Below are positions 31,874 through 42,106 of a stretch of 64,000 nt of DNA, piece after piece. Numbering within the stretch: position 1 is the stretch's first letter; each line of letters opens with the position of its first letter. The notes under the pieces were generated by a model. It was not told where the DNA came from, ran no database searches, and worked only from the letters and a program-made list of their open reading frames with translations. This DNA is from Candidatus Shapirobacteria bacterium (lineage in GTDB: Bacteria; Patescibacteriota; Microgenomatia; UBA12405): NCBI GenBank assembly GCA_037142555.1, contig JBAXAJ010000001.1:104423-168422 (forward strand). Direction: 5' to 3'. Position numbers and translations under genes: made by a program.

Positions 31874-32295
31874 TGAAAGCAAAAACTACAGTATTAAAAG
31901 GCAGTCATGTTGACAGAAGTTGGCATTTAGTTGATCTTAAAGGTAAAACTCTAGGTCGTGTTTGCAGTGAAATTGCTCAAATCCTTATGGGTAAAGATAA
32001 AATAACTTTTTCCTATCATCGTGATGATGGTGATTATGTTGTTGCCATCAATTCTTCAGAAATTGTCACTACTGGTAAAAAATTAAAAGATAAAATTTAT
32101 TATCACCACACAGCTTGGTCTGGTCATTTAAAAGAAGCCACTCTAGGTGAATTATTAAAAAAAGATTCTCGAAAAGTTATTTCTCATGGTGTCTATGGAA
32201 TGCTTCCAAAAAACAAACTCCGTGATGTCAGAATGACTAGATTAAAAATTTTTGTTGGTGAAGAACATAAATACGCCGACAAGTTCACTAAATAA
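31873..32295 (+). CDS. rplM: 50S ribosomal protein L13
   Basis: …WHLVDLKGKTLGRVCSEIAQILMGK… L13 motif. Confidence 0.95.
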   Translation: MKAKTTVLKGSHVDRSWHLVDLKGKTLGRVCSEIAQILMGKDKITFSYHRDDGDYVVAINSSEIVTTGKKLKDKIYYHHTAWSGHLKEATLGELLKKDSRKVISHGVYGMLPKNKLRDVRMTRLKIFVGEEHKYADKFTK

Positions 32296-32299
32296 AGCT

Positions 32300-32710
32300 A
32301 TGGTTAAAAAAACTAATTTAAATAAATACACTTACGCAGTTGGTCGACGTAAATCAGCCATTGCTACTATTAAACTTTTCCCAGGAAAAGGTGATTCATT
32401 AGTCAATAAAATGGCTGTTGATAAATACTTCCCAGGTGCTACCGACAAGATTAACTATAATAAACCTTTTGTGATTACTGAAACTCTTGGTAAGTTCTAT
32501 TTCGAAGCCAAAGTCATCGGTGGTGGAAAACAAGGTCAAGTTGAATCTTTGATGTTAGCAACTTCCAGAGCTCTTTTTAAACAAAATGAAACTCTTAAAC
32601 CAGTTTTAAGACAAGCAGGACTATTAACTGTCGATTCACGAGTCAGAGAAAGAAGAATGGTTGGAACCGGTGGAAAATCTCGCCGACAAAAACAATCTCC
32701 AAAGCGTTAA
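32300..32710 (+). CDS. rpsI: 30S ribosomal protein S9
   Basis: C-terminal …GGKSRRQKQSPKR S9 signature. ATG at 32300 follows the rplM stop at 32293-32295; the 32252 start in the ORF track is an overcall. Confidence 0.9.
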   Translation: MVKKTNLNKYTYAVGRRKSAIATIKLFPGKGDSLVNKMAVDKYFPGATDKINYNKPFVITETLGKFYFEAKVIGGGKQGQVESLMLATSRALFKQNETLKPVLRQAGLLTVDSRVRERRMVGTGGKSRRQKQSPKR

Positions 32711-32732
32711 GCAATATATTTTGTCTTTCCAA

Positions 32733-32760
32733 ATCCCTCACTCCTGTGGGGGATTTTTGT
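32733..32760 (+). terminator. Rho-independent terminator at the end of the ribosomal super-operon
   Basis: atccctcac-tcct-gtgggggat 9-bp stem followed by ttttgtttt. Confidence 0.65.
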
Positions 32761-32767
32761 TTTCTCT

Positions 32768-32830
32768 TATTGACAATATTTTCTATAATGTCTATCTTTA
32801 AATAACATTTAATATTTTATTTAAAAATAG
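32768..32830 (+). promoter_or_regulatory. Conserved upstream element (copy 1 of 3) with TTGACA and a TTAAATaacATTTAA palindrome
   Basis: Near-identical ~60-bp elements precede genes A, C and D; the palindrome lies at 32798-32812. Confidence 0.55.
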
Positions 32831-33796
32831 ATGAAAACATCCTCAATCGCCAAATTTTTAGTAGTAGCTCTAGTTCTAGGAGCTGGTGTGACCTTTGGAA
32901 CTCAAATGGTTCAAAAGAACCAAGAAAACCGAAGTCAAGCATTTGTTCCAGTAGCTGTTTGGGGATTAATATTAGTAGGAGATGCGATAGCTACTTGGAT
33001 TGCCACTCACCCAGATGCAACTCAGGCAATCGGTGAAGCAGCTTCTGAGACAGCGGGAGGAGTAGTGGATCTTTTAGACGATCCTGCAAATCCAGAGAGA
33101 CAAAGAATAATTGATGCAAATGCAGCAGCTTTAAAGTGTCCTGCTGGTTCAAAATATGAATGTCCTCCACTCACTTCACGGGGCGAAGGACCACCATGTG
33201 GTTGCAATAATAATGGTACTTGGACTCCAGTCTTAGTTAAAAAAGATGGTAAGTGTAGTACTAAAAATTATAATACTTGTGAATATGGTGCTGTTTATGA
33301 TAATTTAAAAGACACTACAACACAAGTTCTATGGCAATGTAAGGGTTCTGTTGGTGGCCAAACTGATTTTTGTACTGCGAACAAACCAAAAATCAATGGT
33401 ATTTGTTCTACAACAAAAAATAAATGTACTAAAGGAAAATATTCAGAACTTAAAGACACTGAAGATTATTATTATTGGATGTGTAATGGCACAGCCAATG
33501 GAACATCAGCTAAGTGTCATTCTTCAAAACCTAATAAAGTCAATGGCATTTGTTCAAACACAAAATATTCTTGTTCTAGCGGGACAGTAGTTAATAAAGT
33601 TGACACTACAATTGCCTACAAATGGAGCTGTAAAGGATCTAATGGTGGAAGCCAAACTCCTTGTGATGTAGATAAGCCTGGTGCTTGTGGTAAAACAAAG
33701 AATTCATGTTCTGCTGGTAAGTGGACTGATGTCACTGACACCACAGCTGCTTATAAATGGAAATGTGCAAATATTATTTGTAGTCTTAAAAAATGA
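32831..33796 (+). CDS. Secreted/membrane-anchored cysteine-rich repeat protein, paralog A (321 aa)
   Basis: N-terminal MK..IAKFLVVALVLGAGV.FGTQMVQKNQENRS module shared with B-D. The C-terminus carries repeated C-x5-C-x2-GK(Y/W)-x5-DT-x3-YKWKC modules. The stop overlaps the B start (ATGA). Confidence 0.8.
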   Translation: MKTSSIAKFLVVALVLGAGVTFGTQMVQKNQENRSQAFVPVAVWGLILVGDAIATWIATHPDATQAIGEAASETAGGVVDLLDDPANPERQRIIDANAAALKCPAGSKYECPPLTSRGEGPPCGCNNNGTWTPVLVKKDGKCSTKNYNTCEYGAVYDNLKDTTTQVLWQCKGSVGGQTDFCTANKPKINGICSTTKNKCTKGKYSELKDTEDYYYWMCNGTANGTSAKCHSSKPNKVNGICSNTKYSCSSGTVVNKVDTTIAYKWSCKGSNGGSQTPCDVDKPGACGKTKNSCSAGKWTDVTDTTAAYKWKCANIICSLKK

Positions 33797-34644
33797 AAAA
33801 ATTTAAAATAGCCAAATTTCTTGTAATAGCTTTAGTTCTAGGAGGAGGTCTTTTTTATGGAACCCAAATGGTTCAAAAAAATCAAGAAAACAGAAGTAAT
33901 GCTGCCGGGGGAGCTTTGGTAGCTGAAGGTATCGGAAAATTAGTTGCACCTTACGCAAAAGAGGCAATAAAGGGGTTAAAAGGTAATGACCCAATGCCAA
34001 CAGAAATTTATAAAAGTGGCACTGCTGTATGTGGTTTAAAAAGTTCATGTGAATCTGGGACATATGCACCTTTCTCTAGTGATGATAAGGAAATAAAATG
34101 GACTTGTCAAAAAGGTACTGGACTTAAGCTATTATGCAAGTATATAAAACCTAAAGTTGATGGTCTCTGTTCCACAGATAGAAATAAATGTAGGGCAGGA
34201 ACATTTAAAGAGTCTAAAGACAGTGAAGACCACTATTATTGGCTTTGTGAAGGAATAAATGGTGGATCATCACCATTATGTAATAAACCCAAACTAGTTT
34301 CTCGTGGTGGCACCGACAGACCAATCAAAGGTGTTTGTGGCGAAACAAAAAATTCATGTTCTACTGGTAAGTGGTCTGAAACCACTGACACCACAACTGC
34401 TTATAAATGGAAATGCAATACAACAGTTTGTTTAAAAGACAAAGCTCCTCTATGTGGTGTTTATGCTTTTGATGGTAAACCTATCAAAACAGCTTCTTGT
34501 TATGTTGGTAGTTTAGACAGACCAAACTTCGGACTAGCAATTTATGATGTCACTATTAATGGTAAAAAATATAAAGCATGGTATTGTAAAAACGGTAGTA
34601 GTAAAGTTTCCTGCACAAACAAAACGCCTGTCATAAACTATTAA
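33793..34644 (+). CDS. Cysteine-rich repeat protein, paralog B (283 aa)
   Basis: Shared N-terminal module; the C-terminal ~80 aa are near-identical to C at the DNA level. Confidence 0.8.
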   Translation: MKKFKIAKFLVIALVLGGGLFYGTQMVQKNQENRSNAAGGALVAEGIGKLVAPYAKEAIKGLKGNDPMPTEIYKSGTAVCGLKSSCESGTYAPFSSDDKEIKWTCQKGTGLKLLCKYIKPKVDGLCSTDRNKCRAGTFKESKDSEDHYYWLCEGINGGSSPLCNKPKLVSRGGTDRPIKGVCGETKNSCSTGKWSETTDTTTAYKWKCNTTVCLKDKAPLCGVYAFDGKPIKTASCYVGSLDRPNFGLAIYDVTINGKKYKAWYCKNGSSKVSCTNKTPVINY

Positions 34645-34685
34645 ATTCAAATTTTTTCCAAAAACAAAGCTTATTTACACTAATC

Positions 34686-34748
34686 ATTGACAAAGTTTCA
34701 AATTATATCTATCTTTAAATAACATTTAACAATCTTATTTAAAAATAT
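34686..34748 (+). promoter_or_regulatory. Conserved upstream element (copy 2) with the palindrome at 34715-34729
   Basis: ttgacaaagtttcaaattatatctatctttaaataacatttaacaatcttatttaaaaatat, about 90% identical to copy 3. Confidence 0.55.
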
Positions 34749-35606
34749 ATGAAAAAACTAGGAATAGCCAAATTTTTGGTCATAGCCTTAGTTCTAGGTG
34801 GTGGATTAATTTATGGAACCCAAATGGTTCAAAAGAACCAAGAAAATAGAAGCAAAGCCGCTGAATATGGTAAAACATATAATAATGGAGATGTTATTTG
34901 TGGTGTATCTATACCAGCTGATTGGAGAGGATTAGCAAAATGGAAGCTTCCAAGTGAAATATCTGACGCGGCTGTTGATGAATTTGAAAATGCAGTTTTT
35001 AAATGTAACAAAGATAAATGTACTTTCTCAACTGATTCTATAGGTGACTGGCAATATCTTGAATTTTGTGGCCCAGTTGCAAATACTAGGAAATCTTGCC
35101 AAGAAATAAATGGAGTTAATGCTTCTTGTAAAAATATTGAGGGTGCTTGTGCTTCTAAATTAAATACTTGTCAAAATGGAAAGTTTAAAGATACTGCTGA
35201 CACTCCAACTGAATATAAATGGAATTGTGAAGGAGTTTCAATTTTAGGTGGTACCACAAGTGGTACCACAGCATCTTGTTCTATAAAAAAACAAGTTTGT
35301 GGTGCCAACAGAAATACTTGTAAAATTGGTAAATATTCAAAACTGGATGACACTAACAACCAATATAAATGGAAATGCAATACAACAGTTTGTTTAAAAG
35401 ACAAAGCTCCTCTATGTGGTGTTTATGCTTTTGATGGTAAACCTATCAAAACAGCTTCTTGTTATGTTGGTAGTTTAGACAGACCAAACTTCGGACTAGC
35501 AATTTATGATGTCACTATTAATGGTAAAAAATATAAAGCATGGTATTGTAAAAACGGTAGTAGTAAAGTTTCCTGCACAAACAAAACACCATCTATAAAC
35601 TATTAA
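34749..35606 (+). CDS. Cysteine-rich repeat protein, paralog C (285 aa)
   Basis: Shared N-terminal module, a different middle region, and a C-terminus shared with B. Confidence 0.8.
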   Translation: MKKLGIAKFLVIALVLGGGLIYGTQMVQKNQENRSKAAEYGKTYNNGDVICGVSIPADWRGLAKWKLPSEISDAAVDEFENAVFKCNKDKCTFSTDSIGDWQYLEFCGPVANTRKSCQEINGVNASCKNIEGACASKLNTCQNGKFKDTADTPTEYKWNCEGVSILGGTTSGTTASCSIKKQVCGANRNTCKIGKYSKLDDTNNQYKWKCNTTVCLKDKAPLCGVYAFDGKPIKTASCYVGSLDRPNFGLAIYDVTINGKKYKAWYCKNGSSKVSCTNKTPSINY

Positions 35607-35685
35607 ATTAAAATTTTTTCCAGAAAAAACTGAAATTATTATTCTTTCGAATATTTAACATCAGTCATTGTTTCTTTTGCTAATA

Positions 35686-35747
35686 ATTGACAAAGTTTCA
35701 AATTATATATATCTTTAAATAACATTTAACAAATTTATTTAAAAAAA
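35686..35747 (+). promoter_or_regulatory. Conserved upstream element (copy 3) with the palindrome at 35715-35729; an A8 tract directly abuts the ATG
   Basis: ttgacaaagtttcaaattatatatatctttaaataacatttaacaaatttatttaaaaaaaatg. Confidence 0.55.
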
Positions 35748-36632
35748 ATGAAAAAATTAGGAATAGCAAAATTTTTAGTAATGGCTCTAGTTCTAGGCGG
35801 TGGATTAATTTATGGAACTCAAATGGTTCAAAAGAACCAAGAGAACAGAAGTAAAGCCGCTAATGAAATTACAACACAAGATGGACCCTGTGGTTCTACT
35901 GCTAATGTATGTCTTGATGGGAGACCTGCAACTAACATAACTTCAGACGCTGTTAAGAACAACTGGAAATGCCCATATAATGGAGGATTCGCTAGTTGTG
36001 TATTAATTAAACCAGGTGAATGTGGCACTAAAGCATATGGTGATTGTGTTGCTGGAAAATATCAAAATATAAATGGCACTAACACTCAATGGAAATGTGC
36101 TAATGTTACTTGCTCTATCCCAAAAACTGCAATACCAAAAGGACCTTGCGGTTCTACTGCTAATGTATGTCTTAATGGTGGATCTGCAACCAACATAACT
36201 TCAGATGCTGTTAAGAGCAACTGGAAATGCCCATATAATGGAGGATTAGCTAGTTGTATTTTAATTAAACCAGGTAAATGTGGTACTAAGTCGTATGGTG
36301 ATTGTATTAGTGGAACATATCAAAATATAAATGGCACTAACACTCAATGGAAATGTGCTAATGTTACTTGCTCTATGCCAAAAGTAGTTACAGCACCAAA
36401 AGGACCTTGTAGTACTACTGCCAATAAATGTGTTGATGGGAGACCTGCAACCAACATAACTTCAGATGCTGTTAAGAACAACTGGAAATGCCCATATAAT
36501 GGAGGATTCGCTAGTTGTATTTTAATTAAACCAGGCGAATGTGGCATTAAATATGGTAATTGTATTAGTGGAAAATTTGAAAAAATAAACGACATTCAGT
36601 GGAAATGTGCTAATGTTACTTGCTCTCTTTAA
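35748..36632 (+). CDS. Cysteine-rich repeat protein, paralog D (294 aa), built from three ~87-aa tandem repeats
   Basis: Shared N-terminal module. PKGPCGSTANVC…NWKCPYNGG…QWKCANVTCS is repeated three times with ~90% DNA identity. Confidence 0.8.
   Translation: MKKLGIAKFLVMALVLGGGLIYGTQMVQKNQENRSKAANEITTQDGPCGSTANVCLDGRPATNITSDAVKNNWKCPYNGGFASCVLIKPGECGTKAYGDCVAGKYQNINGTNTQWKCANVTCSIPKTAIPKGPCGSTANVCLNGGSATNITSDAVKSNWKCPYNGGLASCILIKPGKCGTKSYGDCISGTYQNINGTNTQWKCANVTCSMPKVVTAPKGPCSTTANKCVDGRPATNITSDAVKNNWKCPYNGGFASCILIKPGECGIKYGNCISGKFEKINDIQWKCANVTCSL
35880..36632 (+). repeat. Three tandem ~260-bp repeats inside paralog D
   Basis: 35883-36140, 36141-36407 and 36408-36629 align base by base with few substitutions. 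Confidence 0.8.
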
Positions 36633-36658
36633 AAACAATAAATACTTTGTCTATTCAA

Positions 36659-36693
36659 ATCCCTTCCCTCCACTATGGGAGGGGATTTTTGTT
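36659..36693 (+). terminator. Rho-independent terminator after the cysteine-rich cluster
   Basis: atcccttccctcc-acta-tgggaggggat followed by ttttgttt; its sequence resembles the terminator at 32733. Confidence 0.55.
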
Positions 36694-36716
36694 TAATTTA
36701 TTGTTAAAATAATTCT

Positions 36717-37466
36717 ATGACTTTAATCCAATCAATCATTTTAAGTATAGTTCAAGGCATATCTGAATTTTTGCCAATTTCATCATCTGGTCATTTAAAC
36801 CTTTTTCAGTATCTTTTTAATCTCCAACCATCCTTAACTTTAGACATTTTTCTCAATACTGCCACTTTTGTTTCAGTTTTGTTTTTTTTCAGAAAACAAC
36901 TAAACTATTTTTTTAAAAATCTAAAATACATCATTGTTGCTTCAATTCCAGCTGCTCTAGTCGGAATTTTCCTAAAAGATCAAGTTGAATCAATTTTTGC
37001 CGACATAAATTTATTACCATCTTTCTTCCTAATCACCGCCGCTCTCGTCTTTTCTACAAAATATTTAAATGGTAAATCTCAAAAATTAGACTACAAAAAA
37101 GCTTTGGTTATTGGATTTTTTCAAGCCATAGCCATTCTTCCAGCAATTTCTCGTTCTGGAGCCACCATTTTTGCTGCTCTTTTACTAGGCTTAGCGCCTA
37201 TAGAAGCGTTCAAATTCTCTTTTTGCTTATTCATTCCAGCTTCACTTGGAGCTTTGCTTTTAAGTGCTAAAGATCTCAAGGGCGCTAATTTTTTTGAACC
37301 AAACTATTTAATTGCTTTTGTAGTCACTACAATTGTCGGGATAATCGCTCTAAATATTCTTCAAAAAGTATTAATTGGTAAAAAACTTTGGATTTTTGGA
37401 TTTTACACTCTAATCATTGCCATTGTTACTTTCATCCTCTTAACATTCACCGGTTCTGCCGTTTAA
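36717..37466 (+). CDS. uppP: Undecaprenyl-diphosphatase
   Basis: GISEFLPISSSGHL signature and a PAISRSGATI second motif; 249 aa membrane protein. Confidence 0.85.
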   Translation: MTLIQSIILSIVQGISEFLPISSSGHLNLFQYLFNLQPSLTLDIFLNTATFVSVLFFFRKQLNYFFKNLKYIIVASIPAALVGIFLKDQVESIFADINLLPSFFLITAALVFSTKYLNGKSQKLDYKKALVIGFFQAIAILPAISRSGATIFAALLLGLAPIEAFKFSFCLFIPASLGALLLSAKDLKGANFFEPNYLIAFVVTTIVGIIALNILQKVLIGKKLWIFGFYTLIIAIVTFILLTFTGSAV

Positions 37467-37603
37467 CCTGTCCACACTCAATTTAATCAAGTTCTGTCTA
37501 GCCACTTTAACTATTTTTTTAGTTCTAGCGACCTTATTATCTTTTTTATTCTCAGGTTCAACCTGAAAAACTAATTCATTTTCGTATTGTATATTGTCCA
37601 TAT

Positions 37604-40437: not shown

Positions 40438-41493
40438 ATGAAAAAAACAACTATAAAAACAAAATCAGTCGCTAGTAACAACATCCAAGACAAAAAAATG
40501 GAGTCTGTCCGTTTAGCCATGGAACAAATCACAAAAAATTATGGAACCGGATCCATCATGTTAATGGGTGAAAAGAAAGCCGACATGTCAATTGAAGTCA
40601 TTCCTACTGGTTGTCTTCCTCTCGACATTGCTCTTGGTGTTGGTGGTCTTCCTCGAGGCCGAGTCACTGAAATTTTTGGACCAGAAGCTTCTGGTAAAAC
40701 CACTGTTTGTCTTCATCTAATTGCTGAAGCTCAAAAACTTGGTGGAACCGCTGCTTTCATCGATGTTGAACATGCTCTCGATCCTACCAGAGCAGCCACT
40801 GTTGGTGTAGATCTAGACAGTCTTTTAATTTCTCAACCAGACAATGGTGAACAAGCCCTAGAAATCGTTGAAACTCTAGTTCGTTCCAATGCTGTTGATG
40901 TAATCGTCATCGATTCCGTTGCTGCTCTAGTTCCAAAAGCCGAAATTGAAGGTGAAATGGGTGATTCAATGATGGGTGTTCAAGCTCGTCTAATGTCTCA
41001 AGCTCTAAGAAAACTCACTGGTGCTATTTCTAAATCAAAATGTGTTGTTATTTTTACCAATCAACTTCGTCAAAAAATTGGTGTTATGTTCGGCAATCCA
41101 GAAACAACTCCAGGCGGTGTTGCTCTAAAATTCTATTCTTCAGTCAGAATCGACTTAAGAAAAATTGCCAACATCAAAACTCCAGCTGGTGAAACCATTG
41201 GTTCCCAACATCGAGCCAGAATAGTCAAAAATAAAATTGCCCCACCTTTCAAAGAAGCTGAATTTGACATGATGAGTACCGAGGGTATATCTATCAATGG
41301 TGGAATAGTCGACCTAGGTGTCCAACATGGCCTAATCACAAAAGCTGGTGCTTTCTTCAAAATTGGAGATCAAAATCTTCAAGGTCGTGAAGCAGCCAAG
41401 AAATATCTTAAAGAAAACCCAAAAATTGCTGAAAAACTCAAAGCTGAAGTTTGGGAAAAGGTCAAAGATGCAAATCCTGTGGACAAAAAATAG
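40438..41493 (+). CDS. recA: Recombinase RecA
   Basis: Walker [10 protein letters not shown] and FIDVEHALD motifs. The true start may be the internal M at 40497 ([11 protein letters not shown]…). Confidence 0.9.
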
Positions 41494-42106
41494 TCGTTTT
41501 CCAAACAGAATCTATATCAAGTTTTCTGATGGTCTTTTATTGCCATTATTTATCGATGATTTAGTTAAATTATCCCTAAATTCTGGCAAAGAAGTTAGTG
41601 AAGACGAATTAAATATCATTATAAATTTATCTCTATCTTATCTTTTAAGAGATTATGCTCTTCGTCAAATTGCTCTTTCTCCTAGAAGTGAAAAGTCTCT
41701 AAGTCAAAAACTTAAAAAATACATCGATGGCCGAATCTATAAATATTCTATTCCTCAAAATAATCTAGATTTAAAAGATTTAACTGATCAGTGTGTTACT
41801 AAACTTAAAAGCCAAAAATTGATCAGAGATTCAGAATATATCGATTTTTTCATCAAAAAATATCATAACAAATCAAAAAAAGAGATAATTTATCTTCTCC
41901 AAAAAGAAGGTCTTAAAATAGACATTTCTCAATTAAAAGCTTCTGACATTGATAAAATAAAAAAATTAATTCAAAAAAAGAAGATAAATTCAGAAAAATT
42001 AGCTGATTTTAAGTATAAAAATAAAATTATGTCTTATCTATACCAAAAAGGATTTTCTATAGATGACATCAAAAATGTGATTGACGGATTGATGATTTCC
42101 AGTTAA
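41468..42106 (+). CDS. recX: Regulatory protein RecX (probable)
   Basis: It lies immediately after recA with a 26-nt overlap. [20 protein letters not shown] matches the RecX repeat motif (YALRLLxRRxRSExEL). The start is uncertain. Confidence 0.55.

Follow-up and report, generated by a model that had tools for sequence, protein, structure and literature searches.

A perfect tract shared by two neighbouring genes of a Candidatus Shapirobacteria array is probably the product of recent gene conversion

Introduction

How do two neighbouring genes, whose proteins are only distant homologs over most of their length, come to end in the same DNA? The question is raised by a 64-kb stretch of a metagenome-assembled genome (MAG) of Candidatus Shapirobacteria, a member of the candidate phyla radiation (CPR), which was analysed as a whole and is referred to here as the window. 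Between the ribosomal-protein/rpoA operon, of which rpsI is the last gene, and uppP, the window holds four paralogous genes, A to D (NCBI WCG91_00775 to WCG91_00790), arranged head-to-tail on the forward strand, each with a complete open reading frame (ORF) for a secreted or membrane-anchored cysteine-rich protein. B and C end in a cassette that A and D lack, and it is here that the two genes coincide. An earlier interpretation made from the DNA letters by themselves (the sequence-only reading) had attributed the coincidence to recent gene conversion or unequal crossing-over. We propose that recent ectopic gene conversion between the neighbouring paralogs B and C is the probable cause, on the evidence of a sharp-ended perfect tract, the mosaic composition of B and a second natural haplotype with a patch that appears to derive from the junction between C and D.

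Identity of the B and C 3′ ends

Over 224 consecutive positions B and C are identical (224/224 bases; B 34402-34625, C 35364-35587), in frame 0 of both genes, and from the start of this tract to the stop codon 238 of 243 bases agree. The near-identity reported by the sequence-only reading is therefore real, with the correction that the B copy starts at 34402 and not at 34403. All five differences lie in three codons near the 3′ end (ACG CCT GTC in B against ACA CCA TCT in C) and leave the single residue difference that had also been recognised, TPVINY against TPSINY, while none of the ~74 codons of the tract differs. At a background identity of 85%, the probability of 224 straight identities is 1.6e-16. 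The tract is not of low complexity (GC 0.32 against 0.35 for the window); the objection that the likeness might be lower than it seems, or confined to a short repetitive stretch, does not hold. A 58-nt probe allowing up to three mismatches detected two copies in the window and none in 100 shuffles, and neither this probe search nor a repeat scan over the whole 64 kb yielded a third copy or a template repeat.

The remainder of the two genes is much less alike. Their bodies share 26% protein identity over 142 amino acids (E 5e-13), which makes them distant homologs, and the description of the middle portions as unrelated was too strong. Their leaders are 82% identical as DNA, and of the 33 leader codons at which the encoded residue agrees, 12 differ. 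Because even this best-conserved part of the protein shows such codon differences, protein-level selection cannot explain the perfect tract, in which synonymous sites have been homogenised as well, as gene conversion predicts. Selection on the DNA or RNA itself, for example through an embedded regulatory RNA, is almost inconceivable as the cause. Nothing direct speaks for it, the nearest indication being that the array has a conserved non-coding promoter and a palindromic 5′ untranslated region (UTR); against it, the near-invariant leader still has synonymous differences in 36% of its conserved codons and the junction beside the tract is polymorphic between samples. An Rfam scan of positions 32000-37500 returned nothing near threshold.

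The location of the repeat invites comparison with diversity-generating retroelements (DGRs), whose variable regions sit at the 3′ ends of genes for extracellular proteins, as the repeat of B and C does. A DGR, or other programmed diversification acting on these 3′ ends, has a negligible probability here. There are no differences in the 224 nt, the nearby five (G/A, T/A, G/T, T/C and C/T) are not adenine-specific, in agreement with the sequence-only reading, and both copies are coding 3′ ends rather than one of them being a non-coding template. A Pfam scan of the 20 other ORFs in the window detected no reverse transcriptase or integrase, only housekeeping genes together with RecA and RecX. For the window, a DGR is excluded by the combined lack of a reverse transcriptase, a template repeat and adenine-specific differences.

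Independent assemblies and a second haplotype

A repeat in a MAG may have been collapsed, copied or wrongly joined, and two circumstances make this worth considering for the present case: the window is from a MAG, and a full-length protein C is on record only from the NCBI assembly. Such an artefact is nevertheless very unlikely. An assembly of another sample (ENA ERZ27300156, MEGAHIT-style, k = 141) matches the window at 100% on either side of the tract and breaks as an exact repeat predicts. One of its contigs (L001) ends at window position 34542, which is 34402 + 140, and another (L003) starts at 35447, which is 35587 − 140; each contig thus reaches exactly 141 nt into the tract from its own side, and the two 141-mers overlap and jointly span all 224 nt. 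Breaks at these positions indicate a true two-copy exact repeat, with two entries and two exits in the de Bruijn graph, and therefore not a misassembly. In addition, a contig from a third sample crosses the B copy, and by our own reasoning two direct copies with unique flanks allow one order that uses all pieces. That no exact protein C was found elsewhere is probably because other assemblies break inside gene C. More generally, the tract breaks short-read assemblies, so that MAGs will often contain this locus in fragmented or mis-called form.

The contig from the third sample (L002, 1767 bp, from the sister sample ENA ERZ27300174) represents a variant of the array. Its first 1333 nt, comprising the end of A and B through the tract end, have no mismatch to the window (0/1333). 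Over the next 271 nt (tail, spacer, promoter and leader) L002 matches the C-D junction of the window at 98.5% and its B-C junction at 77%, and the final 163 nt correspond to the body of C at 97.5%. In this haplotype B ends in TPSINY, and the near-identical unit of 3′ end, spacer, promoter and leader extends over ~495 nt. Since L002 carries private substitutions, it is a separate haplotype and not a chimera of window sequence. A comparison of strains, which the sequence-only reading had suggested as informative, has accordingly brought to light a different B-C junction, of which the C-D junction is the apparent donor, judging from their sequence likeness. What separates L002 from the window is this 271-nt junction patch, bounded by two exchange points; in both haplotypes B precedes it and the C body follows it, and gene order and number are unchanged. 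Replacement of a patch between two exchange points argues for gene conversion and not for one unequal crossover. As for further strain variants, two scans of JGI metagenomes gave nothing or distant relatives only, and a scan of GTDB species representatives gave seven distant loci of the family, none with the cassette.

Tract boundaries and mosaic structure

The left boundary of the tract lies exactly at a 14-nt motif, TATAAATGGAAATG (YKWKC), that is common to A, B and C, and it is at this motif that the affinity of B changes. In the 72 nt upstream, A and B agree at 62 positions and B and C at 39, whereas in the 31 nt downstream B and C agree at all 31 and A and B at 11; A itself terminates 31 nt past the motif. 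The last module of A (33680-33765) is 88% identical to the corresponding stretch of B (34330-34415). The array is mosaic in its closest relationships, with the last module of B nearest to A (86-88%), the cassette of B nearest to C (100%) and the leader of C nearest to D (89%). Because B switches from A-like to C-like within the motif, the left end of the tract is where B/C homology itself ends. The right end lies 19 nt before the stop codon, inside continuing B/C-specific similarity.

This continuing similarity forms an older and more diverged layer. The 43 nt that follow the tract, consisting of the last codons of B and the start of the spacer, are specific to B and C, absent from A and D, and 79% identical (34/43). 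Beyond them the C-D spacer, at 141 nt longer than the 104-nt spacer between B and C, has a 38-nt insertion (35629-35666), after which the promoter and 5′ UTR are 87.5% and the leader 89% identical. Similarity does continue into the downstream spacer, as had been claimed, but at a much lower level than in the tract, and that of the promoter and leader is family-wide and common to A too.

The left boundary on its own would be consistent with a single gain of the cassette, whereby B formerly ended like A (…YKWKCANIICSLKK) and lately acquired the cassette from C, or the reverse. Up to the YKWKC motif the last module of B resembles A (62/72), and the end of A comes 31 nt beyond that motif. The cassette is, moreover, confined to these genes: an exhaustive HMMER search of 1.84 billion representative proteins recovered no homolog besides the B/C cluster, the four other matches being spurious repeat proteins, and the GTDB species representatives did not contain it. 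The 43 nt past the tract speak against this history. They are B/C-specific yet only 79% identical, about as diverged as the B and C leaders (82%), which indicates, as far as sequence divergence can tell, that the cassette and the sequence trailing it were present in both B and C before the 224 nt were overwritten. We therefore consider a single gain unlikely.

Origin of the shared tract

A different origin for the repeat was contained in the sequence-only reading, namely that a unit running from the 3′ end through spacer and promoter into the next 5′ end arose by unequal crossing-over or was recently duplicated in tandem. Several features of the array are in keeping with it. The genes are head-to-tail with a period of ~960 bp (start-to-start spacings of 962, 956 and 999), similarity runs from the tract into spacer, promoter and leader, the near-identity in L002 covers ~495 nt of exactly this unit, and the spacers hold an apparent decayed copy of the region of the flanking terminators, which fits an old array built by unit duplication. 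A single duplication would, however, give uniform identity, and that in the window varies along the unit (100% in the tract, 79% past it, a 38-nt indel, and ~88% in promoter and leader), with the promoter and leader similarity extending to A. Crossing-over between the tract copies would furthermore delete or duplicate C, whereas the arrangement in the window and that in L002 each need two exchange points, and neither haplotype shows gene loss or gain. As the source of the repeat, this process is quite unlikely, and this part of the sequence-only reading is not sustained; as the origin of the array itself in the deeper past, unequal crossing-over is reasonable.

Gene conversion, the other process that had been named, accounts for the tract with good probability. 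B and C would each first have held a diverged version of a lineage-specific C-terminal cassette of ~72 amino acids. RecA-type homologous recombination between misaligned copies, in one chromosome or between sister chromosomes, would then have copied one version of the cassette over the other, leaving the number of genes unchanged. The converted tract would be the 224 nt, with its left end at the YKWKC motif and its right end inside the older homology, and the same B-C junction would have been rewritten more than once in the population, given that in L002 it is a near-copy of the C-D junction. Consistent with this, the tract is sharply bounded and far more alike than its surroundings (224/224 against 39/72 upstream and 34/43 downstream), and homologous-recombination machinery (RecA and RecX) is encoded in the window. 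Further support comes from a relative (L013) in which genes 2 and 3 of the array share 254 nt at their 5′ ends at 92% identity, with the third gene of the comparison at 78%; segmental homogenisation between array neighbours hence recurs in the family. The tract, its boundaries, the mosaic structure, the two haplotypes and the presence of recA are observed, whereas the direction of transfer, the dependence on RecA and any adaptive role are inferred. A possible role is to maintain one C-terminal domain across proteins whose bodies differ, or to shuffle parts among surface proteins.

Some observations weigh against this account or restrict it. L002 crosses the tract unbroken, which is unexpected if its strain has two copies; that strain may be at low coverage or may be without a second copy, or the contig may have been joined across strains inside the tract. 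Even if it was so joined, a C-D-type junction lies directly upstream of a C-type body in some genome. The perfect identity could be slightly overstated if the assembler merged a few real differences in mid-tract, and the proof of exactness from the k = 141 break points extends to the first and last 141 nt alone, which overlap and together cover the 224 nt, and holds for ERZ27300156 only. Since the two copies are identical and the cassette lacks an outgroup, either gene may have been the donor, in one event or in several, and the exchange would have been non-reciprocal.

A more far-reaching possibility is that the array is a frequently switching cassette-exchange locus in an episymbiotic CPR bacterium. 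The junction module of cassette, spacer, promoter and leader would then be a portable recombination substrate with which cells re-pair bodies with other promoters, leaders and C-terminal ends, and the two haplotypes would be snapshots of this process. We regard such switching as improbable; if it does occur, the CPR would have a hitherto undescribed form of surface variation.

Comparison with known systems

The mechanism put forward here, gene conversion between tandem paralogs, is already known and ordinary, and the case is a new example of it. Its closest analogue is the bab set of Helicobacter pylori, as judged by comparison of gene architecture. In the paralogs babA, babB and babC a variable middle separates an N-terminal homology region from a C-terminal one with >90% identity, and their chimeras arise through gene conversion by intragenomic homologous recombination, the outcome of which varies between isolates (PMC4552749). 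The Shapirobacteria array is similar in having a conserved leader, a divergent body, a homogenised 3′ end and a junction that differs between samples. It differs in that the bab genes lie at dispersed loci and encode beta-barrel outer-membrane proteins, whereas A to D are in tandem and encode modular cysteine-rich proteins with no detectable relation to Bab.

Antigenic variation from silent cassettes offers a second comparison. In Neisseria pilE/pilS, Borrelia vlsE and the MgPa repeats of Mycoplasma genitalium, one expression site is served by promoterless partial cassettes and switching is of high frequency. What the array would have in common with these systems is the non-reciprocal copying of segments between surface-protein sequences, which yields mosaics. 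Unlike them it consists of four complete ORFs, with a promoter-like site for each of A, C and D and with B coupled to A, and a silent-cassette system was rejected on account of this completeness and of the promoter-like sites.

Concerted evolution by RecA-dependent gene conversion, as in tufA/tufB of Salmonella and in rRNA operons, is a third point of reference. There, as here, short perfect tracts that include synonymous sites are shared between paralogs, and the present genome likewise encodes RecA. In the tuf and rRNA cases whole essential genes are homogenised, whereas in the array homogenisation is limited to a single piece, the size of a domain, in an accessory family that evolves fast.

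No paper on this family, or on conversion between paralogs in CPR bacteria, came up in full-text literature searches. The value of the locus lies in its being a clean and independently verified CPR example with natural junction polymorphism. The exchanged cassette is, in addition, an orphan domain, and the secreted cysteine-rich proteins that carry it belong to an uncharacterised family whose leader is unusually conserved. If exchange is frequent, the locus is a candidate surface-variation system for organisms that are thought to live attached to other cells.

Protein family and cassette

The leader of A to D is near-invariant, MKK..IAKFLVxALVLGGGLIYGTQMVQKNQENRSxA (32831-32941, 33793-33903, 34749-34859 and 35748-35858; also on contigs L004 and L006-L010), and from KFLV to its end it is near-invariant across 31 otherwise very different proteins. 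Its polar motif, (L/M)VQKNQENRSKAA, is also found on larger proteins, where it follows hydrophobic helices that are unrelated. The MAGs encoding these proteins bear the labels Parcubacteria, Shapirobacteria and Gammaproteobacteria, the last of which is probably mis-binned. The leader matched no Pfam or NCBIfam model, and it has the appearance of a signal for export or processing that is in use across the lineage. Proteins of the leader-bearing family came, in our searches, exclusively from Shapirobacteria and nearby CPR lineages, and their bodies vary greatly.

After the leader, the bodies consist of cysteine-rich modules of the pattern C-x4-N-x-C-x2-G-x8..-D-x5-Y-x-W-x-C. Neither A to D nor the cassette has a Pfam or NCBIfam match above cut-off or a PDB sequence match. 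An AlphaFold2 model of C is confident (pLDDT ~90) only for two cysteine modules (amino acids 130-220) and poor for the cassette, and a Foldseek search of this model against PDB gave no match with E < 0.001. The 27-amino-acid module (C-x4-N-x-C-x2-G...Y-x-W-x-C, often followed by x-G-x-N-G-G-x4-C) is, on the predicted structure, a putative small disulfide-rich domain, undescribed in that it has no Pfam entry and no PDB fold match. The end of the cassette, YKAWYCKNGSSKVSC, echoes the module pattern Y-x-W-x-C-x-G-x-N-G-G...C, but against the module hidden Markov model of the family itself the cassette scored 4.6 bits, which is not significant, as 44 of 2000 shuffles (2.2%) scored as well.

Related Shapirobacteria carry two- or three-gene arrays of the family between frr and the M50 peptidase gene rseP (L013, 6001-8459; L014, 2819-4359; L015, 6001-7056). 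Genes for dockerin- and cohesin-domain proteins follow the arrays in these relatives, and their adjacency points to an extracellular protein neighbourhood.

Array layout and non-coding elements

The coordinates of the array and its surroundings are collected in Table 1.

Table 1. Features of the paralog array and neighbouring elements, in window coordinates
Feature	Position	Strand	Description
Paralog A (WCG91_00775)	32831-33796	+	321 aa; leader, then cysteine-rich modules; C-terminus ...YKWKCANIICSLKK; without cassette
Paralog B (WCG91_00780)	33793-34644	+	283 aa; C-terminal cassette, ending TPVINY
Paralog C (WCG91_00785)	34749-35606	+	285 aa; C-terminal cassette, ending TPSINY
Paralog D (WCG91_00790)	35748-36632	+	294 aa; leader and three internal repeats of ~86 aa; without cassette
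Perfect 224-nt tract, copy 1	34402-34625	+	3′ end of B; left end in shared motif TATAAATGGAAATG (YKWKC)
Perfect 224-nt tract, copy 2	35364-35587	+	3′ end of C
Older diverged B/C-specific layer	34626-34668	+	Last B codons and spacer start; 34/43 identical to 35588-35630
C-D junction	35588-35858	+	C tail, 141-nt spacer with 38-nt insert, promoter, D leader; 267/271 identical to L002 1334-1604
Promoter-like site, A-B pair	32770-32798	+	TTGACA-17-TATCTT
Promoter-like site, C	34687-34715	+	TTGACA-17-TATCTT, then conserved 5′ UTR
Promoter-like site, D	35687-35715	+	Within C-D spacer
Terminator-like hairpin upstream of array	32731-32756	+	After rpsI
Terminator-like hairpin closing array	36657-36688	+	
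recA	40438-41493	+	PF00154, E 1e-127
recX	41348-42106		Adjoins recA

A, C and D are each preceded by the same promoter-like site, TTGACA-17-TATCTT. The stop codon of A and the start codon of B overlap in ATGA (33793-33796) and B has no promoter-like site of its own, so that from their sequence A and B look translationally coupled, whereas C and D appear to have their own promoters. A terminator scan placed terminator-like hairpins only before A and after D, with none found after B or C. The recombination genes recA and recX lie ~5 kb downstream of the array.

The two flanks of the array (32716-32756 and 36642-36688) resemble each other (ATATTTTGTCTTTCCAAATCCCT... against ATACTTTGTCTATTCAAATCCCT...), both leading into a terminator hairpin, and the 38-nt insert of the C-D spacer resembles a decayed copy of this flanking stretch. 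The likeness of the flanks and of the insert suggests an ancestral repeat unit of terminator, promoter and gene. Within gene D, positions 35866-36642 contain three tandem internal repeats of 258-261 nt, in which identity to the first repeat is 89% for the second and 67% for the third; intragenic duplication thus also occurs in the array.

Two palindromic elements recur at the 5′ ends of the genes. An AT-rich palindrome, TTTAAATAA-N11/12-TTATTTAAA, lies between the -10 box and the ATG of A, C and D (32791-32831, 34707-34750 and 35714-35743). As RNA it folds clearly better than shuffles for A only (z -3.6; C z -1.0, D z 0.0), and from its sequence it could serve a dimeric regulator as operator or form a weak hairpin that masks the start site. 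The other element lies in the leader, where the MVQKNQ codons of A, C and D read as a perfect DNA palindrome, TGGTTC-AAAA-GAACCA (32907-32922, 34825-34840 and 35824-35839). This second palindrome, which the terminator scan flagged on the minus strand, is broken in B and in distant relatives, and it is probably a by-product of codon choice.

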